A stretch of DNA of 64,000 nt. Origin: Selenomonadaceae bacterium. GTDB taxonomy: Bacteria > Bacillota > Negativicutes > Selenomonadales > Selenomonadaceae. How positions within the stretch are numbered: the first letter of the stretch is position 1; the number at the start of each line of letters is the position of its first letter. The stretch is from assembly GCA_017553205.1 (NCBI GenBank), contig JAFZMV010000021.1, positions 6,571 to 70,570 on the forward strand, read 5' to 3'. The position numbers were made by a program, and so were the translations under genes. The notes under the pieces are model-generated. The model saw only the letters and a list, made by a program, of their open reading frames with translations, was not told the origin of the DNA and did not search any database. Below, piece after piece: positions 9,838-53,257 of this stretch.

Positions 9838-10165
9838 AACCCCGCGCCTAAAGGCGGGGGCTTGCAAAAAGTCCTGATTGACTAGCTTAAGTCTTAACTG
9901 ACTACGTTACCTGCGAAAATATAGGTACCTGCGAGCGTAAATCCTAACTTGTAACTCTACGGCTTATGGTTAAACAGTTCTGAGGGGTAGGGACGGTGCT
10001 GTAAGTATACAAAACCGCAGGATAACATTGGCGAAGGATTATTACTCTAGCGGGCGGAGGCTTTAAAAGCAATTAAGCTCGCTCGTCTTTTGGCGAAAAA
10101 ACTTATTTGATAGAGAGGAGGAGTGCGGTTTCCTCCCCACTGCTAAAGCAGGGGGTATCCACCGC
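9838..10165. ncRNA. Candidate structured RNA / long structured htrA leader of unknown class (GC-rich island)
   Basis: About 45-50% G+C in a ~33% background, with stops in all frames. It is bounded by two hairpins of identical architecture: CCCC-G-CGCC UAAA GGCG-GGGG at 9840-9860 and CCCC-A-CUGC UAAA GCAG-GGGG at 10135-10155. Further internal hairpins include ggagga/tcctcc at 10117-10136. Strand is not resolved. Confidence 0.45.
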
Positions 10166-10171
10166 ACATAT

Positions 10172-11290
10172 TTGATGAAATCCAAAAATTTTAAAAAGTT
10201 TGTTTTTGCGGCTTTTATGTGTAGTGCTTTACTTTTGAGCGGCTGTGATAAAAATATCGGAGAAGATTCTGTTGACGATAACGGAAAAGCCGTTGTAAAA
10301 ACTTCTGCAGAAGCGGCAACGAGCAGTTCTTCAAAAGCATCTGACGCAAGAAATACTCCTGTTGTCCGCGTTGCAAAATCTGTCGGACCTTCAGTTGTCG
10401 GAATAACAAATAAAGCAGTTGCGAGAGATTTTTTTAATCGCACTGTAGAAACTGAAGGAGTCGGCTCCGGCGTAATTTTCCGCAAAGACGGTTATATTGT
10501 TACAAACAATCATGTTATTGCAGGTGCAAAGGAATTAATCGTTTCACTTTCTGACGGCAATACTGTCAACGGAGAATTGGTCGGTGCAGATGAAATTACA
10601 GATATTGCTGTTGTAAAAGTCAACGCGAAAGATTTGCCTGTTGCAACTTTTGGAAATTCTGATGATGTTATGGTTGGTGAACCTGCTATTGCTATCGGAA
10701 ATCCTATGGGCTTAGAATTTCAAGGCTCTGTTACTGTCGGAGTTATCAGTGCACTTAACAGAACTTTGGAACTTAATGACAGACGCGTAAAACTTTTACA
10801 AACTGACGCGGCAATAAGTCCCGGAAATTCGGGCGGAGCTTTGTTGAATGCTGACGGAGAAGTTATCGGAATTAACAGTGCGAAACTTGCAACAAACGGA
10901 GTAGAAGGCATGGGCTTTGCAATTCCGATAAACACCGTGCAGAGTATTATTAACGAACTTATGGAAAAAGGTTATGTTGCTCGCCCGTATCTCGGAGTGA
11001 CGATTTTTGATAAACAAACTGCCGCCCGTTACGGATATTCACTGAGTATTGAAAAAGGCGTATATGTTTTTCAAATTGCTGTCGGTTCTCCCGCAGATAA
11101 AGCAGGACTTCAACGCGGAGATATTATTTTGGCTGTAGACGACAAAGAAGTTAATTCCGTGACAGAAGTCAGAAACGATATTGCCGCCAGAAAAATCGGC
11201 GATAAAGTTAAAGTCAAATACGATCGCGACGGAAAAGAAACGACTGTTGAAATTGAATTAAAAGAAATACCTCAGCCGACCAATCAATAA
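10172..11290 (+). CDS. htrA: HtrA/DegP-family serine protease with one PDZ domain, lipoprotein-type signal peptide
   Basis: Catalytic triad contexts TNNHVIAG, DIAVVKV and GNSGGALL, plus a C-terminal PDZ. The N-terminus is K-rich with lipobox LLLSGC. Start is TTG 10172 or ATG 10175. Confidence 0.88.
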   Translation: MMKSKNFKKFVFAAFMCSALLLSGCDKNIGEDSVDDNGKAVVKTSAEAATSSSSKASDARNTPVVRVAKSVGPSVVGITNKAVARDFFNRTVETEGVGSGVIFRKDGYIVTNNHVIAGAKELIVSLSDGNTVNGELVGADEITDIAVVKVNAKDLPVATFGNSDDVMVGEPAIAIGNPMGLEFQGSVTVGVISALNRTLELNDRRVKLLQTDAAISPGNSGGALLNADGEVIGINSAKLATNGVEGMGFAIPINTVQSIINELMEKGYVARPYLGVTIFDKQTAARYGYSLSIEKGVYVFQIAVGSPADKAGLQRGDIILAVDDKEVNSVTEVRNDIAARKIGDKVKVKYDRDGKETTVEIELKEIPQPTNQ

Positions 11291-11828: not shown

Positions 11829-11903
11829 TCAATATTCACTCCCAATTTATAATTTTTGAATTTCATAACTGCTGATTCTTTCAAATATTAAATTTTCCTG
11901 CCT

Positions 11904-11946
11904 AAATAAAAAATCCCTCCGCAGATAAATTTTCTGCAGAGAGATT
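11904..11946 (-). terminator. Intrinsic terminator after the PTS gene
   Basis: On the minus strand ucucucugcaga / ucugcggaggga forms 12 bp, two of them G-U. These pair only in the minus orientation. A U-run follows. Confidence 0.6.
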
Positions 11947-11971
11947 TTTTTATCTTAGGTTTCCGAAAAAA

Positions 11972-13900
11972 TTATTCTTCAACTTTGTAAAGCGTATAAG
12001 TTAAACCAAAACCAACTGCAAGAGCAATCAAGTTTACGATAATGTACTGAATAATTTGTCCGTTCATGTAGAGGAGCATACCAGGAATAACGGTAATACC
12101 CATGCCGGTACCTGCAAGACCCATAAAGCTGGAAATTGCACCGCCGACTGCACCGCCACAGCAACCGAATACAAACGGTTTCATTAAGCGGAGGTTAATA
12201 CCGAAAATTGCAGGCTCGGTAATTCCCAAGAAAGCAGGAACTGTTGAGGAAATATAGAGAGCACGTTTTTTCGGATCTTGAGTTTTGAGAGAAACTGCCA
12301 ATGCCGCACCGCCCTGAGCGATTGTTGCACAAGTGATGATAGCATTGAACGGGTCAGCTTTAATTGTGCTGAGGAGATAAATTTCCAACGCACTGAAGAC
12401 GTGGTGAACACCGAAAATAACGATAACCTGCTGAAGTCCGCCGATAACAAGACCGCCGAGAACAGGAATTTCCAAGAAGTTTTGAACTGCACCGAAAACA
12501 ACCGATTCAAGACCATGCATGATAGGTCCGACAACGAGGAAACCGAGAGCCATTGAAATTGTCAATGTCAAGAACGGAGTTACAATCAAGTCGATAACAT
12601 CTGGGATAAAAGTTTTAAGCCAGTGCTGGAGTTTCGCCGCAAAAATACCGAGAACCAACGCGGGAAGAACTGAACCCTGATAGCCTACCAAAGGAACTGT
12701 GAAAAGTCCCACGTCCAAAGGAATAGGAACTTTGCCGGCATATTCGGGAATAGCGGCTGCTTCCTGCCAAGTCAATCCCAATTCTTTCAAGTCGTTAGCA
12801 AATCCACCGACGACATAAGCGTTAGGCAGAGCCGGGAAAACCAACATCAAACCAAGAACAATACCGATAACGGGAGTACCGCCGAATTTATTCATTGTAG
12901 ACCAGCAGACCAATGCGGGCAAGAATGCAAATGCCGTATCAGTCAAAACTTGAGTCATCAATAAGAAGTTAGGACTCCATTCACTTCCGAGCGACAACAA
13001 CGCTCCGCGAAGTCCCATGAAAAGACCTGTAGCAACCAAAACAGGAATGATAGGTACGAAAACGTCGCCCAATGTACGGGAAATTTTTTGTACCAAACTC
13101 ATTTCGGCGTAAGCAGCTTCTTTTCCGCCGCCTGCACCAAGTGCGGGTTTTAATTTGATAAATTCTTCAGTGACTTTATCAACAAAACCTGTACCGCAGA
13201 TAATCTGATACTGCTGAGCCGCAAAGAATTGACCTTTAACTCCGTCAATGTTTTCGATTTTCTTTTCTTGGATTTTCGATTTGTCATTGACAATAAGACG
13301 CAAACGAGTTGCACAGTGTTCAGCAGTTCTTACGTTATCGGGACCGCCTACATAGTGCATAATAGACTTGGCGACGCGTTCCGCATCCGGTAAGCCTGCA
13401 AACTTTTTAATAACGTCGTCGTCTGCTTCAGCCGAACCGCCGGAACTTTTTTCTTCTTTGGCGGCTTTTGCGGTGACTTTTTGTCCGTCAAGTTCAAAAG
13501 TAATGTCGCCGAATTCTGAATGGTTAGTAACAACAACAGGAGTTGTAGTTTCGTAACCTGCGTCAGTAATAACTTTCGGATCAAACTCAAGCAGAAGTTG
13601 TCCGCGTTTGACTTTACTTCCTGCCTCTGCTTTCGGTTTAAAACCTTTGCCGTCAAGTTTAACCGTGTCCATGCCGACGTGAATCAAAAGTTCAATTCCG
13701 TCGTTGGACTTCAAACCGATTGCGTGACCTGTCGGGAAGAAAACAGTAATCTCACCGTCAAAAGGTGCATAAACTTTTCCTTCGGGATCTTTGACAGCGG
13801 CGCCGCGACCCATTGCACCACCGGCAAACACAGGGTCATTGACCTCGTTTAACGGTGTAAGTTTACCGTTAATAGGACTGCTAATGCGTATGTCCTTCAT
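11972..13900 (-). CDS. PTS sugar transporter, fused EIIA-EIIB-EIIC (glucose/sucrose/beta-glucoside superfamily)
   Basis: EIIA-Glc-like N-terminus (..HAIGLKS..IELLIHVGMDTV), EIIB with active-site CATRLR, then a polytopic EIIC. Start placed at ATG 13900 (GGAGGG 6 nt upstream) rather than the longer ORF-track start. Confidence 0.8.
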   Translation of the reverse strand: MKDIRISSPINGKLTPLNEVNDPVFAGGAMGRGAAVKDPEGKVYAPFDGEITVFFPTGHAIGLKSNDGIELLIHVGMDTVKLDGKGFKPKAEAGSKVKRGQLLLEFDPKVITDAGYETTTPVVVTNHSEFGDITFELDGQKVTAKAAKEEKSSGGSAEADDDVIKKFAGLPDAERVAKSIMHYVGGPDNVRTAEHCATRLRLIVNDKSKIQEKKIENIDGVKGQFFAAQQYQIICGTGFVDKVTEEFIKLKPALGAGGGKEAAYAEMSLVQKISRTLGDVFVPIIPVLVATGLFMGLRGALLSLGSEWSPNFLLMTQVLTDTAFAFLPALVCWSTMNKFGGTPVIGIVLGLMLVFPALPNAYVVGGFANDLKELGLTWQEAAAIPEYAGKVPIPLDVGLFTVPLVGYQGSVLPALVLGIFAAKLQHWLKTFIPDVIDLIVTPFLTLTISMALGFLVVGPIMHGLESVVFGAVQNFLEIPVLGGLVIGGLQQVIVIFGVHHVFSALEIYLLSTIKADPFNAIITCATIAQGGAALAVSLKTQDPKKRALYISSTVPAFLGITEPAIFGINLRLMKPFVFGCCGGAVGGAISSFMGLAGTGMGITVIPGMLLYMNGQIIQYIIVNLIALAVGFGLTYTLYKVEE

Positions 13901-14306
13901 CTCTTCGCCCTCCTTCAAGCGATACATAAAAAACACAGGAACGACCTACAAATTTATTTCAGCAAAATAAATTTCCAAGATTTAAAATGATTCAATTTCT
14001 CCGTGCCGAAACAAAATTTCAAGTATTTGCAAATCGCCCCTCCTCAAATAAAGTATGAAAAAAATATGTATGAATTATATCTGCATAAGGTTTTAACGTC
14101 AACTGCAAGAAGAAAAAATTTTTCGATAATTTTTTAACAATCTTTTGTTGATTCTAGTCAATAATTCCAGTACATTTTGGAAAAATAAAATCTGTCTTAA
14201 ATCACTCGAAGTGAGCAAGAATTTTAATCGACGTTGTTAAAAATTTCTCGACAAAATAAATTTTCTGTGGAATAATTCCTTCAAAATTTTTGGAGGGATT
14301 TTTTTT

Positions 14307-14864
14307 ATGATAATTTTGGCTTCTGCATCTCCACGCAGAAAAGAACTTTTGAAAAAACTTTGCGATAATTTTATCGTTGAATCTTGCGACGTGGAAGAAA
14401 TTCAAACTGCTGACAATCCGAAAAATTTGGCGGTAAAAAATGCCGAACTTAAAGCAAAATTTATTTCCGCTCGGCATGAAAATGATATTGTTATTGGTGC
14501 TGATACGATTGTTACTTTGAACGGGAAAATTTTTGGAAAACCTGCCGACAAATTCGGTGCTGAAAAAATGCTCCGTGAACTTTCGGGAAAAAAGCATGAA
14601 GTTATAACCGGAATTGCAATTTGTACCGAAAATAAAATTTTTACGGCGGCAGAAGTCACCGAAGTTTTTTTTGGAGAAATGACTGACAAAGAAATTTCTG
14701 AATATGTTTCAACCGGCGAACCTCTCGATAAATCAGGCTCGTATGCTTTACAGGGAGGAGCGGCGAAATTTATCGAAAAAATTAACGGCGACTGGTCAAA
14801 TGTTGTCGGACTTCCGCTATACAGACTCAGACAGCTGGCAAAATCTTCGGGGATTTCTCTTTAA
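14307..14864 (+). CDS. maf: Maf-family nucleoside triphosphate pyrophosphatase (septum formation inhibitor-like)
   Basis: MIILASASPRRKELL.. N-terminus and overall Maf pattern. GGAGGG lies upstream. Confidence 0.88.
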   Translation: MIILASASPRRKELLKKLCDNFIVESCDVEEIQTADNPKNLAVKNAELKAKFISARHENDIVIGADTIVTLNGKIFGKPADKFGAEKMLRELSGKKHEVITGIAICTENKIFTAAEVTEVFFGEMTDKEISEYVSTGEPLDKSGSYALQGGAAKFIEKINGDWSNVVGLPLYRLRQLAKSSGISL

Positions 14865-14870
14865 AATTCC

Positions 14871-14899
14871 TTGTAATAAAAATTTAAGTCGGTTATAAT
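14871..14899 (+). promoter_or_regulatory. Sigma-70-type promoter for the solute-binding protein gene
   Basis: TTGTAA, 17-nt spacer, TATAAT. Confidence 0.5.
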
Positions 14900-14933
14900 T
14901 GCGAAAAATTTTTCTTTGCGGGAAGGTGAGTTT

Positions 14934-15980
14934 ATGCGGCGGTATACTGTTTTGCTGTTGGCGGTTTTTATGCTGGTCTTATCTGCGGCGGCAGGAATGA
15001 GTTTTAAAGTCGGAGCAGACGAAAAATCTTTTGACGTACCCATGCAGGAATTGACGGCTTATACAACACTTCCTGCGGAAACTGTTACAATTTTGTCGGA
15101 GGCGTACGAAAAAGAAAGTCGTGTCAGAGTAAATTTTGTTCCGCTTACTCAACAAGATTTAATTCAAAAAGTTCGTGATGATTCTGTTTCAGATCCCACC
15201 GTTGTTAAAACTGTTGACGTTGTAATTTCGGACAGTGCAACTTTAAAAAAGGCGGCGGATTTAAATTTGTTTACGCCTTACACTTCAGAAATAAATGACT
15301 CCGTAAAAAACAGTTTCAAAGACGGCTATGACAGATGGGTCGGAATTTGGTACGATCCTATTGTTTTTTGTGCGAACAAAGATTATTTGAAAAAAATTTA
15401 TGAAATTCCCGACACTTGGGAAAGTTTATCTAAATCAACTGCACGAATCGGAATCACAGATTTTTTGGCGGCTGATGCGTCCTCAAATTTGATGATGCAA
15501 ATGATCGGAAATTTCGGCGACGCAAAAACTTTTGAAATTTTGGCGGGAATACATCCTAAGGTTGTTCAGTACGCAAAATATTTATCAAATCCCGTACGCC
15601 AAGCAGGTATGGGTGAAACTGATATTTCTGTTGCCATTGAGAGCGAAACGTTGAGATATATTCAGGACGGCTATCCGCTGAAAATAATTTATCCCGCAAA
15701 CGGCACGGCTTATATTTTGACGGGAGTCGGAATCACTGCAAAAGATGAAGTCAAAAATAAAGCGGCTGGAAATTTTGCGGACTGGCTTTTAAGTGATGAA
15801 GCTCAAATGATTCTTCAGAAAACGGGCTTTTATTTTATTTCAACAAATCCCAGAACTTTGGCGTATAAAACTTTTGCGGGGAAAAATCTTGTGCTTTTCA
15901 ATGATTCGCAGAATTTTACCGAACAACAGAGAAATACTTTTTTAGACCGCTGGGTTAAACAAATCAGATTTTCTAATTAG
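14934..15980 (+). CDS. ABC transporter periplasmic/extracellular solute-binding protein (family 1, iron/polyamine/thiamine-like); no cognate permease or ATPase adjacent
   Basis: Signal peptide (LLLAVFMLVLSAAAG) and the general SBP family-1 pattern. Start at ATG 14934 after GGAAGGTGAG. Confidence 0.6.
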   Translation: MRRYTVLLLAVFMLVLSAAAGMSFKVGADEKSFDVPMQELTAYTTLPAETVTILSEAYEKESRVRVNFVPLTQQDLIQKVRDDSVSDPTVVKTVDVVISDSATLKKAADLNLFTPYTSEINDSVKNSFKDGYDRWVGIWYDPIVFCANKDYLKKIYEIPDTWESLSKSTARIGITDFLAADASSNLMMQMIGNFGDAKTFEILAGIHPKVVQYAKYLSNPVRQAGMGETDISVAIESETLRYIQDGYPLKIIYPANGTAYILTGVGITAKDEVKNKAAGNFADWLLSDEAQMILQKTGFYFISTNPRTLAYKTFAGKNLVLFNDSQNFTEQQRNTFLDRWVKQIRFSN

Positions 15981-15996
15981 TGAGGCGAAAAAAATT

Positions 15997-17340
15997 TTGG
16001 ATAACAAAAAAAATTTAAAAGCCGGAATTATAAGTTTGGGCTGTGCAAAAAATTTAGTTGATACTGAAGTCATGCTGGGAATTATGCGGGATAACAATAT
16101 TACAATTACTCCGAATCCTGCAGAAGCTGACATTTTAATAATAAATACTTGTGCTTTTATTGCGTCGGCGAAAGAAGAATCAATCACGACGATTTTAAAT
16201 TTTTCAGAGTACAAGACTGAAGGAAACTGCAAATCTTTAATCGTTGCGGGCTGTCTTGGTCAGCGTTACAGCAAAGAACTTTTAAACGAGATGCCGGAAA
16301 TTGATGCAATAATCGGCACAAGTACATGGCACAGAATTATTGAGGCGATAAATTTAACTCTTCGCGGCGAGCGTGCTATTTTAATCGGCGACAAAGAAAT
16401 TATTTACGACTCCAAAACTCCCCGCCTTCGCACTACTCCGAGTTATACCGCCTATGTAAAAATTGCTGAAGGTTGCGATCATAAATGTGCTTTCTGTGCA
16501 ATTCCTTTAATTCGCGGAAAACAAATTTCAAGACCGATTGAAGATATTGTTGCCGAAGTTCAAAGACTTGCTGACGAGGGAGTTAAAGAAATAAATTTAA
16601 TTGCTCAAGATACTACAAATTACGGTCGAGATATTTACGGAAAGCCGAAACTTGCCGACTTGCTCCGCGAACTTGTCAAAGTCGAAAAAATTTCATGGAT
16701 AAGAATTTTGTACGCTTATCCGCAGAGTTTTACAGACGAACTTATTGATTTAATCGCGAGCGAAGAAAAAATTTGTAATTATATTGACTTGCCGTTACAG
16801 CATGCGGCGGACAGTGTTTTGAAACGCATGCACAGACCTGACACAAAAAAATCAATTGAAACGCTTTTAAATAAACTTCGTGAAAAAATTCCTGATGTTG
16901 CAATTCGTTCAACTTTTATGGTCGGTTATCCCGGCGAAACTGATGAAGAATTTGAGATTTTGAAAAATTTCCTGCTGGAACAAAGACTTGATAAAGTCGG
17001 CATTTTTGTTTATTCTCCTGAAGAAGATACCGCCGCTTATGAAATGGACGGGCAAATTTTGGAAGATGTTGCGGGCGAGCGTTACCATGAGTTAATGAGT
17101 ATTCAAAGTTTAATTTCTCAAGAGATTAACGAAAGTTTGGTTGAAAAAGAATTTGATGTTCTGATTGAAGGACGCGACACGGAAACTGCCGAAGTTGTTG
17201 CGGGACGTTCTTACCGCGAGGCTCCTGAAGTTGACGGACAAATTTATATTGAGAATGACAGAAAGAGTTCTGCAGGCGATATTGTCCGCGTAAAAGTCAC
17301 TGCGGGTTTTGCTTATGACGTTGCCGCAGAAAAAATTTGA
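15997..17340 (+). CDS. rimO: Ribosomal protein S12 methylthiotransferase RimO (radical SAM, MTTase N-domain + TRAM)
   Basis: LGCAKNLVDTEVMLG N-terminus, radical SAM CDHKCAFCAIP, C-terminal TRAM. Confidence 0.88.
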   Translation: MDNKKNLKAGIISLGCAKNLVDTEVMLGIMRDNNITITPNPAEADILIINTCAFIASAKEESITTILNFSEYKTEGNCKSLIVAGCLGQRYSKELLNEMPEIDAIIGTSTWHRIIEAINLTLRGERAILIGDKEIIYDSKTPRLRTTPSYTAYVKIAEGCDHKCAFCAIPLIRGKQISRPIEDIVAEVQRLADEGVKEINLIAQDTTNYGRDIYGKPKLADLLRELVKVEKISWIRILYAYPQSFTDELIDLIASEEKICNYIDLPLQHAADSVLKRMHRPDTKKSIETLLNKLREKIPDVAIRSTFMVGYPGETDEEFEILKNFLLEQRLDKVGIFVYSPEEDTAAYEMDGQILEDVAGERYHELMSIQSLISQEINESLVEKEFDVLIEGRDTETAEVVAGRSYREAPEVDGQIYIENDRKSSAGDIVRVKVTAGFAYDVAAEKI

Positions 17341-17373
17341 TTTTGCGAAAAAATTTTTTAAGGTGGTCTTTTT

Positions 17374-17532
17374 GTGAATAGTGAATTAAATGAAAAAGTT
17401 TCTGCTGACGATTCTATTTTGAAAAAAATTTTTAGAGGAATTGCACTTGTAGGTTTTGGAATTGTCGGAACTCTTTTTGTCTTTGTGAATGGAATGTTGG
17501 GAAGATTCGGAGAACCGAAAAAGAAAAAATAA
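17374..17532 (+). CDS. Unannotated small membrane protein (52 aa), below the ORF-track cutoff
   Basis: GTG start 6 nt after AAGGTGG. One hydrophobic helix (IFRGIALVGFGIVGTLFVFVNGML) and a basic tail (EPKKKK). Confidence 0.4.
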   Translation: MNSELNEKVSADDSILKKIFRGIALVGFGIVGTLFVFVNGMLGRFGEPKKKK

Positions 17533-17557
17533 TTTTTTTTACGGAGGATAAAAAATC

Positions 17558-17932
17558 TTGTACGAATTAACTGTAAGATCCGAATTTGAGGCGGCTCACA
17601 AAATTAAAAATTATCCCGGGAAATGTGCACGGCTTCACGGTCATAATTGGATTGTTGAAATTGTTGTCAAAGGTTCTGAACTTAACGAGCTGGGAATTTT
17701 GGTGGACTTCAAAATTTTGAAATCCGAACTGAATAAAGTTTTGGAAGAATTGGATCATCAATACTTGAATGAACTTAAAATTTTTGCGGAAAAAGAGCCG
17801 ACTGCAGAAAATATTGCAAAAATTATTTTTGAAAAACTTTCCTGCTCTGAAATTTTTAACGGTGCGGCAAAATTATCGGCAGTAAAAGTATTCGAGTCGC
17901 CGAAATCCTGCGTCATTTATTATCCCGACTGA
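17558..17932 (+). CDS. queD: 6-carboxy-5,6,7,8-tetrahydropterin synthase
   Basis: FEAAHKI..CARLHGHNW.. signature of the PTPS/QueD family. TTG start after GGAGGA. Confidence 0.85.
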   Translation: MYELTVRSEFEAAHKIKNYPGKCARLHGHNWIVEIVVKGSELNELGILVDFKILKSELNKVLEELDHQYLNELKIFAEKEPTAENIAKIIFEKLSCSEIFNGAAKLSAVKVFESPKSCVIYYPD

Positions 17933-18062
17933 AAAAATTTTTTTGAATATCCTGCCGAAAAAAATACGGCATTTTTTTTTGGAAATTTGCCGAACAGAAT
18001 AATCCCCATAAATTTTGCCGAAGAATTTTTACAACTGATAGAATAAGGAGTGTTGATTTAGC

Positions 18063-18710
18063 TTGAATTTTTATCCGAAAATTTTATGTATGCTCTTATT
18101 GCTGGTATTTTTGCCGCCGATTGGTTTAATTTTCATGTACAAATTTTCTCCGTTCAACAGGCAAACAAATTTCATGATTGCGGTGGCTTGTATAGGATTT
18201 TTTATTTACGCTCAATTTTCTTCTCCGAACAGTTCAGATTTGAAATTATTTTTCACGGGAGAAAATAAAAAAGCCGCCTACCAAGTGACGACTGAAGAAT
18301 TTATAGAAAAATTTAATTTAAAATCTGAAGAACTTGCCCGACAACTGCAAATGAAAATTAAAAATCCGCTGGAAGTTTCGGAAAAAAGTTTTCGTTATGA
18401 ATTTAATCAGAATCTAATTTTGAGCGGAAAAATTGGAACGGACGAAAATATTTCTGAAATTGAAATTTTTGCCGATCCCAAAAATCAAGACGAATCTTTT
18501 CAAGCGATTGTTTGTATCGGTTTAATAATTTCTGTTTTCAATCCCGAATTGGATCAGGACGAACGCAGCGAAATTTTCAACGAATTAAAAATGTTTGTGG
18601 ATAAGGGAACCGCGAACATGAACGAAAAAACCACACGCGGAAAAATTCAATACAGCGTACAGACTGACGAAAATAAAAAAGTTACTTTCAAAGCTGTAGT
18701 CATGAAATAA
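18063..18710 (+). CDS. Hypothetical membrane-anchored protein (two N-terminal TM helices)
   Basis: ORF with hydrophobic N-terminus. AAGGAG upstream of the TTG. No family recognised. Confidence 0.5.
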   Translation: MNFYPKILCMLLLLVFLPPIGLIFMYKFSPFNRQTNFMIAVACIGFFIYAQFSSPNSSDLKLFFTGENKKAAYQVTTEEFIEKFNLKSEELARQLQMKIKNPLEVSEKSFRYEFNQNLILSGKIGTDENISEIEIFADPKNQDESFQAIVCIGLIISVFNPELDQDERSEIFNELKMFVDKGTANMNEKTTRGKIQYSVQTDENKKVTFKAVVMK

Positions 18711-19677
18711 TTTGTGAACGTGCTTTTTCAGCAGTTTTCATGACGGCAAGAGAAGTTTCAAGACCTTTCTGCATTGCGGAAAAGTCTTTTTTATTGTAAA
18801 TTTCCGCAAATCTTTTAAATTCATGAGTCATTCGATGAGAAAATTTATTCAAAGAAATTTTTTCGACTTTATCTGAACCGCGAAGATTTATTTCAAAGCC
18901 CTGCAATTCGTTGGGCTTGCCGAGAGTCCTTATATATCCTTTTTCGCCTTGAATAATCGCATAACTTGGAGAGTCAGAATCTTTCGCGGCAACTGCGGAC
19001 GCAAAAAAATTTTTATACTTCATGACAACAATTCCCGAAGTATCTACGCCGTTAAAACCGATATTTGCTGTATAATTTACTTCGTCAGGTTCTCCGAAAA
19101 GTCCGACAATAAAATTTAAATTGTAAATATTTAAATCGTACAAAGCTCCGCCGAATTTTTTCGGATCGAAAGCGGGAGCAACTTCACCTTGCAAATATTT
19201 GTCGTAGCGGCTGGAGTATTGAGAAAAATTTGCCGTGACTGCACGAATTTTCCCAAGCTGAGGAAGTTTTTCCTTTATCGCTGAAAAGTTAGGCAAATTT
19301 AAAGTAGTTATCGCCTCGAACACATACAAATTTTTTTCTTCGGCTAAATTTTTTATTTCTTCGACTTCTTTTGAAGTTGTCGCGAAAGGTTTTTCAACTA
19401 TAACATTTTTTTCGGCGAGCAGGGCTTTTTTCGCGTATTCATAGTGAACGCTGTTAATTAAGCCGATATAGACAAAATTTATTTCTTCGTCTTTTAAAAG
19501 TTCGTCGTAGTCTGTATAAACTTTTTTGATTGAAAAATCTTCCGCGAGTTTTTCGGCTTTATCTTTGCTGTGAGGACGTGCAAAAATTGCCGTCTTAGAA
19601 ATTTCAGGAACTTCTTTGAGTGCGGGCAAAGCTCCTTCATTAACAATTAAACCTGTTCCGCAAATTGCAAGATTCAT
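18700..19677 (-). CDS. Gfo/Idh/MocA-family NAD(P)-dependent oxidoreductase
   Basis: N-terminal Rossmann motif MNLAICGTGLI and an EKP motif (VIVEKPFA). Start moved to ATG 19677 (GGAGGTG upstream). Confidence 0.8.
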   Translation of the reverse strand: MNLAICGTGLIVNEGALPALKEVPEISKTAIFARPHSKDKAEKLAEDFSIKKVYTDYDELLKDEEINFVYIGLINSVHYEYAKKALLAEKNVIVEKPFATTSKEVEEIKNLAEEKNLYVFEAITTLNLPNFSAIKEKLPQLGKIRAVTANFSQYSSRYDKYLQGEVAPAFDPKKFGGALYDLNIYNLNFIVGLFGEPDEVNYTANIGFNGVDTSGIVVMKYKNFFASAVAAKDSDSPSYAIIQGEKGYIRTLGKPNELQGFEINLRGSDKVEKISLNKFSHRMTHEFKRFAEIYNKKDFSAMQKGLETSLAVMKTAEKARSQIIS

Positions 19678-25926: not shown

Positions 25927-27174
25927 ATGACAAGAAAATTTCTGCTGAGTCTCCTTCTTTTTTTATTGGGGATTTCAGCTTTTAAAATAAGTTATGCGGC
26001 TACTTTGGAAAATGTTCGATACAGTTACGGCTCTGGCACTGTAAGAATAGTTTTGGACTTGACTGATAAAACTGATTTTGAAGAATCGACTGCAGAAAAT
26101 CCTTCGCGTTCGATTATCGACTTGCAAAATACAAGAGTCGCTCCAAATCTTCATAATTACTCCGCAGAATTAAATTCTACTGCCGCAAAAAAAATTCGCG
26201 TCGCTCAATTCAATTCAAATACCACAAGAATTGTTATCGAAACGATGGCAGCGGTAAATATTTTCAAACTCAACAACGGTCCGAGCGGTTACAGAATTGT
26301 TATTGATGTGGGAAATGCGGCTTTTAAAGAAAATCCTGAACTAAATAAACCGAAAGAACCCGAAATAAAAATTGAAACTCCCAAAGAAGAAAAAGAACTC
26401 AAGGACGATAAAAAATCTAAGGAAGATAAAAAATCTAAAGACGACAAAAAATCTAAAGACGACAAAAAGTCTAAAGACGACAAAAAATCCAAAGACGATA
26501 AAAAATCCAAAGATGACAGAAAATCTAAGGACGATAAAAAATCTAAAGATGACGAGCCGAAAAATATTGAAGATGATTTGAAAGAATTAACCGGTTTAGA
26601 CGGAAAAACTATCGTCATAGATCCGGGACATGGCGGAGGAGATGCGGGAGCAATCGGACCGACAGGAGTTATGGAAAAATCTGTGACTCTTCGTGTTTCC
26701 CTTGAACTTGAAAAACTTTTGAAAGCAGAGGGAGCAAATGTTATAATGACCCGCAGAACCGATAAACCTGTTTCGCCCAGAGGAGATTCAGCATCTGCTA
26801 TCGAAGAACTTCAGGCACGTTGTGATGTTGCCAATAGGTTGAAAGCTGACATTTTCATTTCGATTCACGCTGACAGCTTTACAAATCCTGACGCGAGAGG
26901 TTCAACCGGTTATTATTACGAGAAAAGCACAAGTCCCGACGGGAGAAGGCTTGCCGATGCAATTAGACGCGGTCTTTGCGAACAGATACAAACACCGAGC
27001 AGAGGAACTAAGCCATGCAATTTCTATGTAGTTCGCCATACTGATATGCCTGCCACTCTTTTGGAACTTGCGTTTATTTCAAATCCTGAAGAAGAAAAAA
27101 TTCTTGACTCCGAAGAGGGAATAAAAAAAGCCGCACAAGGTATTTTGGACGGCATTGAAGATTATTTCGGATAA
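25927..27174 (+). CDS. N-acetylmuramoyl-L-alanine amidase (Amidase_3) with N-terminal AMIN domain and K/D-rich repeat linker
   Basis: Signal peptide; AMIN-like TVRIVLDL..; catalytic IVIDPGHGGGDAGAIG..SIHADS. GGGGGAGG lies upstream. Confidence 0.85.
   Translation: MTRKFLLSLLLFLLGISAFKISYAATLENVRYSYGSGTVRIVLDLTDKTDFEESTAENPSRSIIDLQNTRVAPNLHNYSAELNSTAAKKIRVAQFNSNTTRIVIETMAAVNIFKLNNGPSGYRIVIDVGNAAFKENPELNKPKEPEIKIETPKEEKELKDDKKSKEDKKSKDDKKSKDDKKSKDDKKSKDDKKSKDDRKSKDDKKSKDDEPKNIEDDLKELTGLDGKTIVIDPGHGGGDAGAIGPTGVMEKSVTLRVSLELEKLLKAEGANVIMTRRTDKPVSPRGDSASAIEELQARCDVANRLKADIFISIHADSFTNPDARGSTGYYYEKSTSPDGRRLADAIRRGLCEQIQTPSRGTKPCNFYVVRHTDMPATLLELAFISNPEEEKILDSEEGIKKAAQGILDGIEDYFG
26407..26550 (+). 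repeat. In-frame 18-nt tandem repeat (8 units, DKKSK[D/E]) inside the amidase gene
   Basis: gat aaa aaa tct aa[g/a] ga[a/c] repeated eight times with silent or conservative variation. Confidence 0.9.
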
Positions 27175-30539: not shown

Positions 30540-32180
30540 TCATTTTTTGGCTTTTTTATTTTTTCGTGCCTCATAACGTTTTTTTGATTCGGCAATAATT
30601 TTGTTCATCGGGTGATTTTTCCGAGTTTCGCAATTTTCATTTCCGCAATAAAACATTGGGGTACGTTCTTTAAATTTATGCAGGAACATTGTACCGCCAC
30701 AAACTTTACAAGGTTTTTCCTGCGGTTCGTCCCAAGTTGAAAAATCACAAGCAGGAAAATCTTCACAGATAAATGAATTTCTTTTTCCGAAAAGTCTTTT
30801 TGTCAAACGTTTTCCGCATTTCGGACATTTCTTGTCGAGATATTCCAAAATTGGCTTTGCGTTTTTACATTCGGGATAACCTGAACACGCCAAAAATTTT
30901 CCGTAGCGTCCTCGTTTAATCAGCATGGGCTTTCCGCATTTGTCGCAAATTTCGTCGCTCAATTCGTCGGGCTGTTTTTGCGGAGTGGCATTTTCTCCAA
31001 GTTCATTCATTGCCTGTTCAAAATTTTTAACAAAAACGTTACAATAATTTTCTATAACAGAAATTTTTTCCGCCTTTCCTTCAGCAATTTCCGAAAACTG
31101 CACGGAAAGTTTTTTATAAGAATCTGAACTGAAATCTTCATCAAAAAATCCGTCAAGAGCCTCCAAAACTTTTTTGCCTGTCGGAGTGATTTTATAAGTC
31201 GAATTTTCAGCCGTAATATAATTTCTTTTCAGCAGTGAAGAAATCCCGCCCGCGTAAACTTCAGCCCAATCAATTCCAAGTTTATCAAGAGCCGCCATCA
31301 AAGATGCGTCGGAACATTCGCCGCCCAAAATAAATTTTTCGTCAACTTTTTTTTCGGACTGATTGAAAATTAAATTATAAAGTTGAAATTGTCCGTCAGA
31401 TAAAAATTCCTTGACGCTTTCCGGAGTGCGTTTTTCGTCCGTCAAAAAAATTTCTTCGCCGTGAGGAAATTTTATTAAACCTGTCCTCTCGTCGTCATTT
31501 AAACTTACGCCTTCAAAAAGTTGTTCGGCAATCACGCGAGTTTTTGCGGCGGAAAAATTTAATTTTTGAAATGCAAGCTCCTGCATAACTGCGGGAGTAA
31601 ATTTTTTTTCAAGAATAATTTTGCCGTCTATTTTTTTTTCGGTGATGAGTTTTAAAAGAAGTACACGAAATCTGCCGACTTTTACTCCGCGATAAATTTT
31701 GCAGGAAAGATAATCGCCAATTTTTTGACTGACAAATTTGTCGATAATCTGACGAGCCTGAAAAGATTTAACAAGATTTTCGTCAATAGGTCTTGCATAA
31801 TCCTGAAGATTTTTTATTTTGTCTTTGGTGAGTTCGTCAAGAAAAATTCTGCACTTGGATTTTGCATTTACTCCGAAAAGTTCGCAACACTGTTTTGAAA
31901 GAAATTCTCCAGCACCGTCAGGATTCATCGCAAAAAAAACTCTTCGAGCATTCAAAGATTCTTTTTCAATTTCTTTCACCAGCGGAGCTTTTCCGCGAAC
32001 TTTGATATATTCCGGAGAATAATTTTCTTCGTCAATTCCGAGTCGGCTTTTCGGCAGATCTCTTAGAAATCCGTCTGTAGATATTACCAAAAAAGATCTT
32101 CCCAAAAATTTTTTCAGCGTTCGAGCTTTGCCCGCTGTTTCAGTGAGTATCAAAGTTTTTAATGTTGTTTCCTTCGACAA
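30540..32180 (-). CDS. Topoisomerase IA (TopA)-like protein, shortened and apparently catalytically degenerate; Toprim + remnants of the core + three C4 zinc ribbons
   Basis: LILTETAGKARTLKKFLG..GFLRDLP (Toprim). AMNPDGAGE replaces ATDxDREGE. AEQLFEGVSLNDDERTGLIKFPHGEE replaces ..LYEG..GLITYMRTDS. Zn ribbons CDKCG..CSGYPEC, CPKCG.., CKVCG..CGNENC. TTG start after GGAGGG. Immediately downstream of dprA. Confidence 0.75.
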   Translation of the reverse strand: MSKETTLKTLILTETAGKARTLKKFLGRSFLVISTDGFLRDLPKSRLGIDEENYSPEYIKVRGKAPLVKEIEKESLNARRVFFAMNPDGAGEFLSKQCCELFGVNAKSKCRIFLDELTKDKIKNLQDYARPIDENLVKSFQARQIIDKFVSQKIGDYLSCKIYRGVKVGRFRVLLLKLITEKKIDGKIILEKKFTPAVMQELAFQKLNFSAAKTRVIAEQLFEGVSLNDDERTGLIKFPHGEEIFLTDEKRTPESVKEFLSDGQFQLYNLIFNQSEKKVDEKFILGGECSDASLMAALDKLGIDWAEVYAGGISSLLKRNYITAENSTYKITPTGKKVLEALDGFFDEDFSSDSYKKLSVQFSEIAEGKAEKISVIENYCNVFVKNFEQAMNELGENATPQKQPDELSDEICDKCGKPMLIKRGRYGKFLACSGYPECKNAKPILEYLDKKCPKCGKRLTKRLFGKRNSFICEDFPACDFSTWDEPQEKPCKVCGGTMFLHKFKERTPMFYCGNENCETRKNHPMNKIIAESKKRYEARKNKKAKK

Positions 32181-32205
32181 TTAAAACCCTCCAAGCTTTT
32201 TTCAA

Positions 32206-32250
32206 TTAGAAATGAGGAATGTGGAATTAAAATTCCTAACTCCTAATTCC
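32206..32250. repeat. GGAA-heptad palindromic element, copy 2 (dprA / topA-like spacer)
   Basis: ttagaaa tgaggaa tgtggaa ttaaaa ttcctaa ctcctaa ttcc. It overlaps the dprA stop codon. Confidence 0.75.
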
Positions 32251-33364
32251 TTCTGTATCGTCCGCCGTCTTCAGTAATATATTTTTTCAGTTCAAGTTCA
32301 AGAATTATAGACGAAATTTCTGCCGCGTCAATATCATCAACCGACATCAAAATTTCATCGAGAGTAATATATTCTTCAGCGGGAATTATGTCAAAAATTT
32401 TTTTCTCCGTGTCAGTAAGTTCAATCGGTTTGACTTCCAAAATTTTCTTCTCTTCAACAGGTGCGGGAATTTTTTCAGTTTCAAAAATATTTTGTTCGAC
32501 TGAAAAATTATATTTCTTCAAAATATCTTTGACATCATTTAACAAAATCGCACCGTTTTTTATGAGATTGTTACAGCCTAAACTTTTTTCGGAAAAAATA
32601 TTTCCCGGCACGGCAAAAACATCACGAGAAAATTTTTTTGCGTCCTCTGCCGTCAAAAGTGCTCCGCTTTTTTCTCCCGCCTCAATAACAATCACACAGC
32701 GTGAAAGCCCCGCAATAATTTTATTTCTTGCAGGAAAACTTCCTGTATTCGGCTGAAAACTCGGACTGAATTCACTTATGACAATTCCTTTTTCAGAAAT
32801 TTCTTCAAGCAGTTTTTTTTTCTCGCTCTTGAAATAATAACTTATTCCTCCGCCCAAAATTGCCGCCGTTCTTCCGTTTTTCATTGCACCGATATGAGCG
32901 GCAGTATCAATTCCTTTAGCTGCTCCGCTGACAATCGTTAAACCTGCCGCCGCAAGTTCGGAGCTGATTTTTTGAGCGGCTTTTTTTCCGTATTCAGTCG
33001 CCTCTCTTGTTCCGACAATCGCAACTCTTTCCGAAAAAGTTCTTAAATTTCCGCGATAATAAAAAATTGCCGGAGCAGACGGAATATTTTTTAAGATAGG
33101 CGGATAATCTTCGTCAAGAATACAGCACAATTTAAAATTTTTCTTTTCGCAAAAACCTTCAATCATTTCGGGAGCCTCAGGAAATTTTTTTCTGAATTCA
33201 AAAAAAGATTCCAACGCATTTGACGGCAGATTTATTTTTTCAAACTCTTCCCGTCTTGCATGCCATGCTTTTTCCGCACCTCCAAAAAAATTTGAAATTT
33301 TTATTACTCGCTGACTTCCCATTTGATTCGCGGCTTTCATTGCCGCCATAAAATATTTCTCCAA
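32243..33364 (-). CDS. dprA: DNA processing protein DprA (Smf)
   Basis: VAIVGTREATEYGKKAA..LTIVSGAAKGIDTAAH..GGGISYY..FPARNKIIAGLS. C-terminal winged-helix-like tail. Confidence 0.9.
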   Translation of the reverse strand: MEKYFMAAMKAANQMGSQRVIKISNFFGGAEKAWHARREEFEKINLPSNALESFFEFRKKFPEAPEMIEGFCEKKNFKLCCILDEDYPPILKNIPSAPAIFYYRGNLRTFSERVAIVGTREATEYGKKAAQKISSELAAAGLTIVSGAAKGIDTAAHIGAMKNGRTAAILGGGISYYFKSEKKKLLEEISEKGIVISEFSPSFQPNTGSFPARNKIIAGLSRCVIVIEAGEKSGALLTAEDAKKFSRDVFAVPGNIFSEKSLGCNNLIKNGAILLNDVKDILKKYNFSVEQNIFETEKIPAPVEEKKILEVKPIELTDTEKKIFDIIPAEEYITLDEILMSVDDIDAAEISSIILELELKKYITEDGGRYRRN

Positions 33365-33566: not shown

Positions 33567-34427
33567 ATGTTGGTGGAAAAAGTCAAAGTGATGATTGTTG
33601 ATGATTCAAAAGTCAGTCGTGCTATATTGGCAAACCACTTGTCGAAAACAAATTTTGAAGTCGTCGCTATGGCGAAAGATGCGGCGGAGGCTTTGAAACT
33701 TTATCATGAATGTAGTCCTGATATTGTGACGATGGACATGAATTTGCCGGACGCGGACGGAATAGAATGCAGCAGAAGAATTCGTGCGGCTGATCCTGAA
33801 GCAAAAATCGTAATGATAAGTGCGATGAGGGACGGAAATTTAATAGCACGCGGCAAAGAAGTCGGAATCGGTGCATTTTTGCAGAAACCTGTAAGCACAA
33901 ACGCAATAATTGATTCACTGATGATGCTTTGTCAAAAGAAAGTCAGTCGTGTTGCAATGCTCAGAGAATCTTACGTAAAAATTTTCGCGAATTCTTTAAA
34001 GCAGGGAATTTTTGAAATGATTGCAGTAAAAGTCGAGCCTGTTATAGAACATTACGACAAAAAATATTTGGACGTGGACGGAATAGCGGTCATAGTCGGC
34101 TTGACGGGCAGTCCTTCCGGCAGAGCGATATTTTACATGTCGAAGGACACCATGAAAAATTTTTCAAAGAAAATGTTGAGCAGTGAAGATTTATCTGACG
34201 ATGAAATCCAAGATGCAGTGGAAGAAGCGGCAAATATTATCATGGGGCATGGCGTTTCAAATGTAAACGACGTTTTTAAAGACAAAGAATTGAGAATTAC
34301 TCCGCCGGGTACAATCTGCGGAGCGGGCATCAGGGTGGCGAGCCCGAAACTTACGACTTTCAAACTTACAGCCCCGACAAATTTCGGCGACATTTGCGTT
34401 AATGTCGGATTCGCGGAAGGAGATTGA
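33567..34427 (+). CDS. CheY-like receiver domain fused to a CheX/CheC-like phosphatase domain
   Basis: REC: VMIVDDSKV..IVTMDMNLPDADG..ISAM. C-terminal: GIAVIVGLTGSPSGRAIFY..AVEEAANIIMG (ExxN)..ITPPGT. Confidence 0.8.
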   Translation: MLVEKVKVMIVDDSKVSRAILANHLSKTNFEVVAMAKDAAEALKLYHECSPDIVTMDMNLPDADGIECSRRIRAADPEAKIVMISAMRDGNLIARGKEVGIGAFLQKPVSTNAIIDSLMMLCQKKVSRVAMLRESYVKIFANSLKQGIFEMIAVKVEPVIEHYDKKYLDVDGIAVIVGLTGSPSGRAIFYMSKDTMKNFSKKMLSSEDLSDDEIQDAVEEAANIIMGHGVSNVNDVFKDKELRITPPGTICGAGIRVASPKLTTFKLTAPTNFGDICVNVGFAEGD

Positions 34428-34431
34428 TAGC

Positions 34432-34899
34432 GTGGATGCAAAACTCGTAAACCCTTTTATTGATGCGTTTATGGCGGTTATGCCGCAAATAGGTTTTCCA
34501 ACGCCGACAAGAAAAAAAGTTTTTTTACAGGATAGAAATATTGTCAGCAATGGCGTTGTTGTTATGGTCGGATTTACAAAACAAATGCGTGGTAATGTTG
34601 TTTACAACATGAAAGAGGACGTTGCAAAATTTGTAGCGTCAACCATGATGATGGGCATGCCCGTTGCAGAATTTGACGCAATGGCTCAAAGTGCGATTTG
34701 TGAACTTTCTAACATGCTTTCTGCAAATTCCGCAACCAATCTCACGAAAATGGGACTTGAAGTTGATATTTCTACTCCCAATTTGACTATCGGTCAAGGT
34801 CTTTCCGTAAAAATAAGCGACAGTCAATATCTTACTATTGAAATGGATTTGGGCGGACACAGCGTTGATATTGCAATCGCTGTTGACAGGAATAATTAA
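34432..34899 (+). CDS. cheX: Chemotaxis phosphatase CheX
   Basis: VNPFIDAF..VVVMVGFTKQMRGNVVY..AICELSNML (ExxN)..DISTPNLTIG. GTG start 8 nt after AAGGAG. Confidence 0.8.
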   Translation: MDAKLVNPFIDAFMAVMPQIGFPTPTRKKVFLQDRNIVSNGVVVMVGFTKQMRGNVVYNMKEDVAKFVASTMMMGMPVAEFDAMAQSAICELSNMLSANSATNLTKMGLEVDISTPNLTIGQGLSVKISDSQYLTIEMDLGGHSVDIAIAVDRNN

Positions 34900-52297: not shown

Positions 52298-52383
52298 GCG
52301 GATATGGCGGAATTGGCAGACGCGCCGGACTTAGAATCCGGTGTCCTTGCGACGTATGGGTTCAAGTCCCTTTATCCGCACCA
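52298..52383 (+). tRNA. tRNA-Leu (anticodon UAG), class II with long variable arm, CCA encoded
   Basis: Acceptor GCGGATA/TATCCGC; anticodon stem CCGGA/TCCGG with loop CTTAGAA; T-loop TTCAAGT; discriminator A + CCA. TTGACA..TTTAAT promoter-like boxes at 52257-52286. Confidence 0.92.
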
Positions 52384-52404: not shown

Positions 52405-53253
52405 TCAGAGGTTTAATAAATTTTTCGCATTGAGTTCCAAAATTTTTTTCTTGTCATCATCAGTGACAGGAATTTTTTTTATGAAATTTATAGATTCAGT
52501 CGGAGAAGTCCATGGGCTGTCCGTGCCGAATAAAATTTTTTCAGCACCAAAAATTTTTACGAACTCACAAAATTTTTTTTCGTCCATTAAATTTAAATCT
52601 TCGTCATTCCATGAAAAATCTTTTCGCGGGTGAATTTTTCCCGTTGAAAATGAAGTGTCAAGAAAAATTTTTTTATCGGCAAGAGTAATTAAAACTTCGT
52701 CCCAATTTTTCCAGCCGCCCATATGAGCAAGAACAAATTTAAAATTTCCGATTTTCTCAATGACATTCCGCGACATTTTCGGCGAACAACTGACAACGCC
52801 CGGAAAACCAATATCAAGCCCCGCATGAGTTACAACAATTAAATCAAGTTCGGCGGCACGATCAAAAATATTCAAAAATTTTTTGTCATCAAGATTTTTA
52901 TTTTGATAGACAGGGTGAACTTTTATTCCTTTTAATCCCAAATTTTTTATCCGCGAAAGTTCTGCACGATAATTTTCAAAATCAGGGTGCATGCTTGCAA
53001 AATAAATTATTCCCCGCTCAAAAAATTTTTCGTTAATGTCGGCGGCAGAATTATTTATTTTTTCAACCTGTGCGATATGAGTTGCAACAGGAAGAATCAC
53101 CGAAAAATTTATTTCGGATTTCTGCATGGAATTTATCAAGCCGTTTAAAGTTCCGTCAGAAAATGGAATTGTTTTGCTTGTTCGGCTCAATTTTTCGACG
53201 ACTTCAGCAGAAATTTTTTCGGGAAAAATATGTGTGTGAAAATCTATAATCAA
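52405..53253 (-). CDS. Amidohydrolase-2 / TIM-barrel metal-dependent hydrolase family protein
   Basis: IIDFHTHIFPEKI N-terminus and later ..VTHAGLD.. and DSPW motifs. Start placed at TTG 53253, 7 nt after GGAGGA. Confidence 0.7.
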   Translation of the reverse strand: MIIDFHTHIFPEKISAEVVEKLSRTSKTIPFSDGTLNGLINSMQKSEINFSVILPVATHIAQVEKINNSAADINEKFFERGIIYFASMHPDFENYRAELSRIKNLGLKGIKVHPVYQNKNLDDKKFLNIFDRAAELDLIVVTHAGLDIGFPGVVSCSPKMSRNVIEKIGNFKFVLAHMGGWKNWDEVLITLADKKIFLDTSFSTGKIHPRKDFSWNDEDLNLMDEKKFCEFVKIFGAEKILFGTDSPWTSPTESINFIKKIPVTDDDKKKILELNAKNLLNL

Positions 53254-53257
53254 AAAA

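Follow-up and report, generated by a model that had tools for sequence, protein, structure and literature searches.

Here we describe a shortened relative of DNA topoisomerase I (TopA) encoded in a 64,000-nucleotide (nt) stretch of contig JAFZMV010000021.1 from a bacterium of the Selenomonadaceae, a family found in gut and rumen (the window, by which we mean this whole stretch). The gene lies at positions 30540..32180 of the (-) strand, as delimited by translation of its open reading frame (ORF) and by Pfam and NCBIfam matches, and directly follows dprA. Its product of 546 amino acids (aa) carries the NCBI accession MBR6012456.1 and the name 'topoisomerase DNA-binding C4 zinc finger domain-containing protein'; we refer to it and its orthologs as the short form. 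On the basis of sequence comparison and a predicted structure we consider that the short form is probably a non-catalytic descendant of bacterial topoisomerase I, that is, a DNA-binding 'pseudo-topoisomerase'. A preliminary description of this DNA, made from its letters alone, had left a choice between an inactive DNA-binding paralog of TopA and an extremely divergent topoisomerase. The analysis favours the inactive, TopA-like DNA-binding protein, although synteny identifies it as a positional ortholog and not a paralog, while a divergent topoisomerase now appears very unlikely, the strand-passage domain being deleted and the catalytic Tyr having been replaced repeatedly in the family.

A TopA homologue with a reduced core

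Homology to TopA, which had been noticed by eye, indeed extends along the length of the protein. The Toprim (PF01751), Topoisom_bac (PF01131) and Zn_ribbon_Top1 (PF01396) domains score 35.4, 65.6 and 67.1 bits, respectively, all above their gathering cutoffs. The AlphaFold2 model, built from a 120-sequence alignment, has a pLDDT of 87.4 and a pTM of 0.75, and TopA structures are the top Foldseek matches, with Streptococcus mutans TopA (PDB 6ozw) in the lead (E=3.5e-29, TM 0.62). When aligned with this enzyme by phmmer, residues 4-187, 192-240, 247-274 and 288-387 of the short form pair with residues 37-221, 290-338, 387-414 and 490-589, a pattern that implies three internal gaps in the short form; the N-terminal block is the best conserved (139 bits). 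Against the TopA equivalog model TIGR01051 the protein reaches 237.3 bits in four separate stretches, with a cutoff of 456.4, and is thus not a member of the equivalog.

From the N-terminus, and with all coordinates on the (-) strand, the protein begins with a Toprim-like domain (residues 8-120, 31821..32159; PF01751, 35 bits) in which the N-terminal Glu, E14, is kept (E or D in the family). Within it, at residues 86-92 (31905..31925), column counts place a degenerate Mg-binding motif, NPDGAGE, where canonical enzymes have D-x-D-x-E-G-E. The first part of D4 (residues 121-184, 31629..31820), alignable to TopA up to residue ~221, includes the motif KVGRFR (SAGRVQS in canonical enzymes), of which K167-R172 are invariant in short-form orthologs and the Arg is present in 137/137 canonical TopAs. 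There follows a D2/D3 remnant (residues 185-287, 31320..31628), to which the three deletions (~171 aa) map; according to the secondary structure of the model, short and poorly conserved strands (185-192 and 279-287) flank a reduced D3. The former active-site segment, GLIKFPHGEE (residues 234-243, 31452..31481), has F238 (31467-31469) in place of the catalytic Tyr and H240 in place of R321. The second part of D4 (residues 288-395, 30996..31319) aligns with residues 479-581 of Escherichia coli TopA and 490-589 of the S. mutans enzyme, and contains the best PF01131 stretch (290-376). The preliminary description was also right about the three C4 zinc ribbons (residues 410-445, 446-483 and 484-520, 30621..30953; PF01396, 67 bits), whose Cys residues are invariant (12/12) in 120 orthologs. 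A Lys/Arg-rich C-terminal tail (residues 521-546, 30543..30620), helical in the model between 524 and 545, completes the protein, and basic tails of variable length occur across the short-form family. All peptide strings quoted in the preliminary description were found in the translation.

The strand-passage gate is deleted

An initial estimate that ~180 aa of the core are missing came close to the 171 aa that we measured, in three blocks, against 137 canonical TopAs. In these enzymes the median number of additional residues is 61 at reference positions 185-193, 43 at 249-252 and 67 at 280-288. Judged by the boundaries of the aligned stretches, the first and third deletions correspond to residues ~222-285 and ~405-478 of E. 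coli TopA. They would therefore represent the two halves of domain D2, and the second deletion the middle of D3, with the D2 and D3 boundaries of the E. coli structure. This D2 domain is an arch, and shapes both the toroid hole and the gate through which strands are passed. The D2 loop R442KGDEDR is described as projecting into the toroid hole, and the D2-D4 hinge as opening the gate (PMC4678816); both the residue 442 loop and the D2-D4 hinge of E. coli TopA fall within the third deletion. The deletion map thus predicts that the short form lacks the four-domain toroid with its D2 arch, and with it the toroid hole. The deletions are in-frame and common to the whole short-form family.

Degeneration of the catalytic residues

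To compare individual positions we used a control alignment of six family members with 137 canonical-length TopA representatives, the latter obtained by exhaustively searching 1.84 billion cluster representatives. D111, D113, Y319 and R321 (E. coli numbering) are listed as belonging to the TopA active site (PMC4678816). In the canonical set D111, D113, E115 and R321 are present in 137/137 sequences, E9 in 136/137 and Y319 in 135/137, and the T-D-S that follows R321 in 136, 137 and 136 of the 137. At the same columns the window protein has N86 (D111), D88 (D113), A90 (E115), H240 (R321), E14 (E9), F238 (Y319) and G-E-E (T-D-S). Profile hidden Markov model and phmmer alignments alike set GLIKFPH opposite GLITYMR of S. 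mutans TopA, so that the catalytic Tyr is a Phe. The preliminary observations of a Tyr-to-Phe replacement with loss of the RTDS context, and of an altered acidic Toprim cluster, therefore hold, the latter with the qualification that one Asp (D88) is kept.

These changes are a property of the family. Among 120 short-form orthologs, the Tyr column holds Y in 74, F in 40 and C in 6. Asp never occurs at the D111 column (N96, S13, T8, E2, G1); at the E115 column we counted Q60, E24, R22, A10 and five others, and at the R321 column H82, R13, Y7, C7 and others. The D113-equivalent Asp is kept in 112/120, and E9 is kept as E or D. The family therefore departs from canonical enzymes at every catalytic column except E9 (E or D) and D113, and the short form has neither the active-site Tyr segment nor the set of Toprim acidic residues of TopA. 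Fitch parsimony on a neighbour-joining (NJ) tree, with Y as the ancestral state at the Tyr column, gave at least 10 independent changes at this column and 11, 15 and 17 at the other three, the R321 column having at least 17. G-L-I before the Tyr column and KVGRFR in D4 are invariant within the family, as are four tyrosines, Y58, Y268, Y309 and Y321.

The most divergent branch of the family is the P0122/P0273 subgroup (MBR1730749.1; 47% identity, 573 aa), in which TDPDRQGE (D-P-D) and the Tyr are kept and R-T-D-S is lost (GLITYYDNEV). This subgroup may represent an intermediate stage of degeneration; its residues suggest that decay of the Mg site came after the loss of both the gate and the Y-R-T-D-S segment.

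The short form is conserved under purifying selection

Four assemblies, obtained from different samples, encode an identical 546-aa protein with identical neighbours. Assemblies that carry the short form include JAFYNH01 (RGIG7246), CAMUZG01 and CAMJMR01. When 5.8 billion proteins were searched, more than 120 clusters of short-form proteins of 535-608 aa were returned, with 57-83% identity, so that orthologs are indeed found in relatives; every named cluster is a protein from a Selenomonadaceae metagenome-assembled genome (MAG), annotated as 'topoisomerase DNA-binding C4 zinc finger domain-containing protein'. When clustered at 50%, two full-length family representatives were left, at 58% and 47% identity. 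Scores drop from 522 to 348 bits at the edge of the family, where canonical TopAs start (348 bits). The GC content of the locus varies from 37% to 54% across the short-form clade, and reading frames are intact, with no stops or frameshifts, in 8/8 short-form loci read. The ratio of nonsynonymous to synonymous substitution rates (dN/dS; Nei-Gojobori method, five orthologs with 69-83% protein identity) is 0.11-0.21, values that are approximate since dS lies at 0.8-1.5, near saturation, though far from 1; dprA, compared between the same genomes, gives 0.11-0.36. Conservation is highest in the zinc ribbons (0.72-0.86; ribbon 1 0.86, ribbon 3 0.82) and the Toprim domain and first part of D4 (0.78-0.79), followed by the D3 remnant and second part of D4 (0.70), with 0.44-0.45 for the two strands that replace D2.

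The gene also carries good translation signals. Its TTG start codon (32178-32180 (-), read from the sequence) lies 62 nt past the dprA stop and is preceded, with a 6-nt spacer, by a ribosome-binding site GGAGGG (32187..32192 (-)), just as first described. A GGAGG site with a non-ATG start (TTG or GTG) was present in 8/8 short-form orthologs examined; across these eight (the window, L085-L088 and L005-L007), TTG occurs in the low-GC group and GTG in L005-L007. The starts of canonical topA genes are mixed, with ATG, TTG and GTG all seen. The uniform use of a non-ATG start behind a strong GGAGG in the short forms may reflect deliberately modest translation.

These data bear directly on whether the gene is a decaying pseudogene, or a product of assembly or sequencing error, as might be thought of a protein that is shorter than TopA, lacks catalytic residues and scores under the cutoff of TIGR01051. 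However, the same protein and synteny recur in four independent assemblies from different samples; over 120 full-length orthologs are of constant length, and eight loci are free of frameshifts and stops; dN/dS is far from 1; the whole family shares the deletions, which keep the reading frame; and the AlphaFold2 fold is confident. We consider the chance of decay or artefact to be negligible, and the early impression of a gene that looks expressed rather than decayed is supported by the intact orthologs, the GGAGG sites and the dN/dS values. The short form is a real, conserved, folded protein under purifying selection.

The short form occupies the topA slot

The upstream ORF (32243..33364 (-), on the same strand) is a true DprA, with 236 bits to TIGR00732 (cutoff 191) and an E-value of 6e-72 to PF02481, in agreement with the position originally assigned to the gene. 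The window DprA also scores 195 bits on the PADLOC model for ShosA, the DprA-like antitoxin of the ShosTA defence system; we take this score to reflect homology between families rather than the presence of a defence system, since the DprA equivalog cutoff is also passed. The order dprA then short form is found in the window and in eight other loci, adjacency being kept in every locus examined, on a shared strand and with a spacing of 16-62 nt. Three loci (L005, L006 and L007) read dprA-short form-trmFO-hslV-hslU and a fourth (L088) dprA-short form-trmFO; we call short-form genomes type B. In the low-GC sublineage of the window, dprA and the short form are kept together, the downstream genes are rearranged and the surroundings differ.

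Related genomes, which we call type A, have canonical topA genes of 736-797 aa in the arrangement (folB-)dprA-topA-trmFO-hslV-hslU-codY-flgB. Four lineages were sampled, namely Selenomonas sp. WCA-380-WT-3B (topA 758 aa), the P0503 group (736 aa; nine contigs shown of 24 read), P0444 (797 aa) and a Schwartzia MAG (776 aa). Because the same dprA-X-trmFO-hslVU slot holds canonical topA in these genomes, the short form is a positional ortholog of topA and not an added paralog.

The genes of this slot also give a relative measure of the pace of change. Within type A, within type B and between the two types, respectively, identities are 74-87%, 92-96% and 72-76% for HslU, 69-81%, 77-90% and 60-67% for TrmFO, 53-60%, 51-75% and 39-47% for DprA, and 73-87%, 55-72% and 37-42% for TopA or the short form. 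This pattern points to a burst of change on the type B stem, after which the short form has evolved, under purifying selection, at roughly the pace of DprA. In the NJ tree the short-form family is a long branch approximately equidistant (0.63-0.67) from all canonical TopAs, and the tree thus did not single out a sister among them. The closest canonical cluster by total score, that of representative P0126, consists of Selenomonadaceae TopAs of 723-843 aa; its named members come from Schwartzia sp., Selenomonadaceae bacterium, Negativicutes bacterium, Mitsuokella sp. AF21-1AC and Selenomonas sp. WCA-380-WT-3B.

Is there an active topoisomerase I elsewhere in these genomes?

According to a review, topoisomerase I is 'found in all' bacteria (PMC7140829), so that by default one would expect these genomes to encode another type IA enzyme elsewhere, either more divergent or acquired by horizontal transfer. 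A phmmer search of the short form against all six-frame ORFs of the 64-kb window returned only the protein itself, and no second TopA was found within 10 kb in related loci. Scanning genome contigs with the family alignment recovered at least three short-form loci among the matches listed; the pattern CSGYP[ED]CK proved generic to TopA ribbons, and type A Selenomonadaceae TopAs lack both scan patterns, so that the scan is uninformative on canonical TopA in those MAGs. Nor did the NCBI accession blocks show one that is common to the canonical TopA MBQ7479013 and the short forms compared (MBR6012456, MBR4153662, MBR0261045, MBO4780563, MBQ4404428, MBQ3452323 and MBR1730749).

Among canonical Selenomonadaceae TopAs, 119/120 are at least 76% identical to a confirmed type A sequence. 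P0126 is the sole outlier; it is AT-rich, rare (3 sequences) and 63-65% identical to type A. Its gene lies on a 3.5-kb contig of 42.5% GC, between a YitT gene and an ABC ATPase gene and not after dprA. As a candidate for the relocated topA of a short-form genome, P0126 could not be assigned to any such genome. The adjacent ABC ATPase matches the C-terminus of window ORF 53258-54040 with 86% identity across 36 aa; as a synteny lead (locus L092) this was set aside, since the window has an amidohydrolase in the YitT-topA place and a 36-aa match is too short to establish orthology. A metagenome scan with P0126 gave only TopAs at 48-56% identity from other Firmicutes. P0135, the canonical TopA nearest in the N-terminal block, was considered as a partner of the short form and rejected, as it comes from another organism (type 'Firmicutes bacterium CAG:238') in which topA has a comM-dprA(289 aa)-topA-hslVU-codY operon; P0503, P0444 and P0500, considered as relocated topA genes, are all type A, with topA linked to dprA. 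In the canonical TopA search there was no AT-rich sequence with the amino-acid composition to be expected of the 37%-GC lineage of the window, which is well assembled in several samples.

It is worth considering that the short form is the only topA homolog of these bacteria, in which case a whole and widespread Selenomonadaceae clade would have naturally lost topoisomerase I activity, relaxing negative supercoils by topoisomerase III or IV and keeping a dead TopA for a non-catalytic task. Bacillus subtilis is reported to live without any type IA enzyme when topoisomerase IV is amplified (PMC6547408), which keeps such a natural loss within what is biologically feasible; a dead gene in the very slot of topA, where four other lineages keep the canonical gene, is also compatible with it. 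We regard natural loss as unlikely. If true, it would be an exception to the rule of topoisomerase I in all bacteria, and these would be the first bacteria known to live without it.

Proposed function and alternative explanations

The comparisons above document the losses themselves. In the ancestor of one Selenomonadaceae clade, topA within the conserved dprA-topA-trmFO-hslVU operon lost the two D2 arms together with the middle of D3, and constraint on the cleavage chemistry, i.e. the Mg-binding D-x-D-x-E and Y-x-R-T-D-S, was lost as well. Purifying selection has retained the core of Toprim and D4, a D3 of reduced size, all three C4 zinc ribbons in intact form, and the basic tail. D4 contributes the G-strand groove in TopA. 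The present-day protein is thus predicted to use its zinc ribbons and the D4 groove to bind DNA, which would most likely be single-stranded or unwound, and would neither cut DNA nor pass strands. The zinc ribbons of E. coli TopA are described as binding single-stranded DNA (PMC4678816). The short form is probably co-expressed with DprA and, as their tight and invariant adjacency might indicate, may partner it in the handling of single-stranded DNA during recombination, transformation or repair. Supercoil relaxation would then be supplied by another enzyme in these bacteria.

Several points weigh against this interpretation. The Tyr is kept at its canonical position in 74/120 orthologs, the Toprim Glu and second Asp are mostly kept, and the most divergent subgroup, P0122, still has TDPDRQGE, so that residual metal or DNA chemistry in the family is formally conceivable. 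The searches above did not locate a canonical type IA topoisomerase in any short-form genome. The near-saturation of dS softens the estimate of selection, and the link to DprA consists of adjacency, which canonical topA shares. The retained residues are also what would speak for a protein that is still an enzyme, either an extremely divergent type IA topoisomerase or a nicking-closing enzyme for single-stranded DNA, with another nucleophile or with the gate supplied in trans; the invariant Y58, Y268, Y309 and Y321 would be available for this purpose, and activity would be expected if the genomes have no other topoisomerase I, given that the enzyme is said to be 'found in all' bacteria (PMC7140829). 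However, these four tyrosines match structural Tyr residues that are also present in canonical TopAs. The window protein itself has a Phe, and 46/120 orthologs have lost the hydroxyl through at least 10 independent replacements. R321-T-D-S and D111/E115, invariant in the 137 canonical enzymes, are lost, and with both D2 arms deleted there would be no toroid for strand passage. Three separate internal segments are missing, and the operon has no extra gene that could supply them in trans. In addition, the short form evolves much faster than canonical TopA relative to HslU. Retained catalysis is thus highly improbable.

A different role for an equally dead protein deserves more weight. By means of its zinc ribbons and basic tail the short form could bind RNA polymerase, or unwound or negatively supercoiled DNA, and act as a sensor, competitor or scaffold for transcription-coupled supercoiling or for another topoisomerase. 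Indeed, the ribbons and the tail are the best-kept parts, the C-terminal ribbons of E. coli TopA are described both as binding single-stranded DNA and as interacting with RNA polymerase (PMC4678816), the operon contains housekeeping genes (trmFO, hslVU) and not competence genes, and the dprA-topA adjacency is older than the change, so that a role specific to DprA need not follow from it. However, the Toprim/D4 core and D3 remnant are also constrained, something for which an adaptor made of zinc ribbons only, like YrdD, would have no need. We consider this regulatory role improbable as an alternative to the DNA-binding pseudo-topoisomerase that we propose, although the evidence here does not separate a DprA-linked from a regulatory function. 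A role in a defence system was not indicated either, as PADLOC gave no meaningful match for the short form.

Other features of the window

Divergent from dprA are genes for a response-regulator-CheX fusion (286 aa) and a CheX/CheC protein (165 aa) at 33567-34899 (+); the same pair flanks dprA in loci L086 and L088, whereas L085 and L087 do not have it there. In L085 the stretch downstream of the short form (11837-19408 of that locus) looks like a variable or defence-type region; it encodes a KAP NTPase, a UvrD-PDDEXK helicase-nuclease of 1181 aa and a toxin-antitoxin pair of the RHH/ParE kind. The window also encodes a Type ISP restriction-modification enzyme of 1589 aa (2444-7213 (-)) with Mrr_cat_2, ResIII/helicase, ISP coupler, methyltransferase and Type_ISP_C domains, and a similar 1612-aa Type ISP-like gene lies upstream in L085.

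A full-length HEARO RNA (Rfam RF02033, 127.9 bits) was identified at 9832-10045 (+), between a metH-like gene (7396-9759) and a gene for an HtrA-like Trypsin_2/PDZ protease (10172-11290). HEARO RNAs usually accompany the ORF of an HNH endonuclease; next to this one, no HNH/IscB ORF is apparent. A cell-wall amidase with AMIN and Amidase_3 domains (25927-27174 (+)) has a linker of about nine tandem Lys/Asp-rich hexapeptides (…DKKSKDDKKSKDDKKSKD…). A lone tRNA gene is found at 52298-52380 (+); beside it on the (-) strand are an Amidohydro_2 gene (52405-53397) and an ABC ATPase gene (53258-54040), whose maximal ORFs overlap by 140 nt, and because of this overlap the true start of Amidohydro_2 is probably internal to its maximal ORF.

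Known relatives and significance

Compared with canonical Selenomonadaceae TopAs (clusters P0126, P0524, P0503, P0444 and P0500), the short form shares full-length homology, the operon slot, the Toprim/D4 core, the three C4 ribbons and a basic tail. It differs in having ~171 aa fewer, in its degenerate D-x-D-x-E and Y-x-R-T-D-S motifs and in reaching only half the TIGR01051 cutoff; it is 37-42% identical to the canonical TopAs of its sister lineage, whereas those are 73-87% identical among themselves.

A closer parallel in outcome comes from E. coli K-12, where the dprA operon reads smf(dprA)-smg-yrdD and YrdD (b3283, 180 aa) is annotated as a 'putative DNA topoisomerase'. Residues 407-517 of the window protein match YrdD by BLASTP (E=8e-16, 26-34% identity), in the zinc ribbons only. 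YrdD is reported to bind single-stranded DNA, with a dependence on Zn (Cheng et al. 2014, as cited in PMC4678816), and this is the function that we predict for the short form. Both proteins derive from TopA, are read as non-catalytic, are encoded downstream of dprA and have homologous tandem C4 ribbons. However, YrdD consists of zinc ribbons only (~180 aa), whereas the short form has a further ~400 aa under constraint, made up of Toprim, D4 and a reduced D3; the short form arose independently, in Negativicutes, and E. coli has a known active topA elsewhere. By analogy, the short form looks like an independent and far less reduced version of the same outcome, a non-catalytic TopA-derived DNA binder beside dprA. 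Like pseudoenzymes and dead paralogs in general, of which the dead AdoMetDC 'prozyme' is one published example (PMC5201418), it keeps its fold under purifying selection and has lost its catalytic residues. Unlike them, it has lost a whole mechanical element, its gate for strand passage, as well as the chemistry, and it has no known active partner. Our literature searches turned up no report of a dead type IA topoisomerase that still has its Toprim/D4 core, and nothing specific on Selenomonas topA.

Type IA topoisomerases are seen as universal and as uniform in their mechanism. The short form would be a natural separation-of-function mutant, in which the TopA scaffold and zinc ribbons are kept and the gate and cleavage chemistry are gone, and could show which roles of TopA exist apart from catalysis, such as the binding of single-stranded DNA or bubbles and interaction with partners. 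As regards annotation, the short-form family should not bear the name topoisomerase I. Its genomes would hold either a second active type IA enzyme or the first case known of bacteria without topoisomerase I. Finally, the linkage of dprA and topA, which is very widespread and an old puzzle, outlives catalytic death in two independent lineages, as enterobacterial yrdD and as the short form of Selenomonadaceae; this persistence suggests that the coupling of the two genes depends on DNA binding and not on relaxation.

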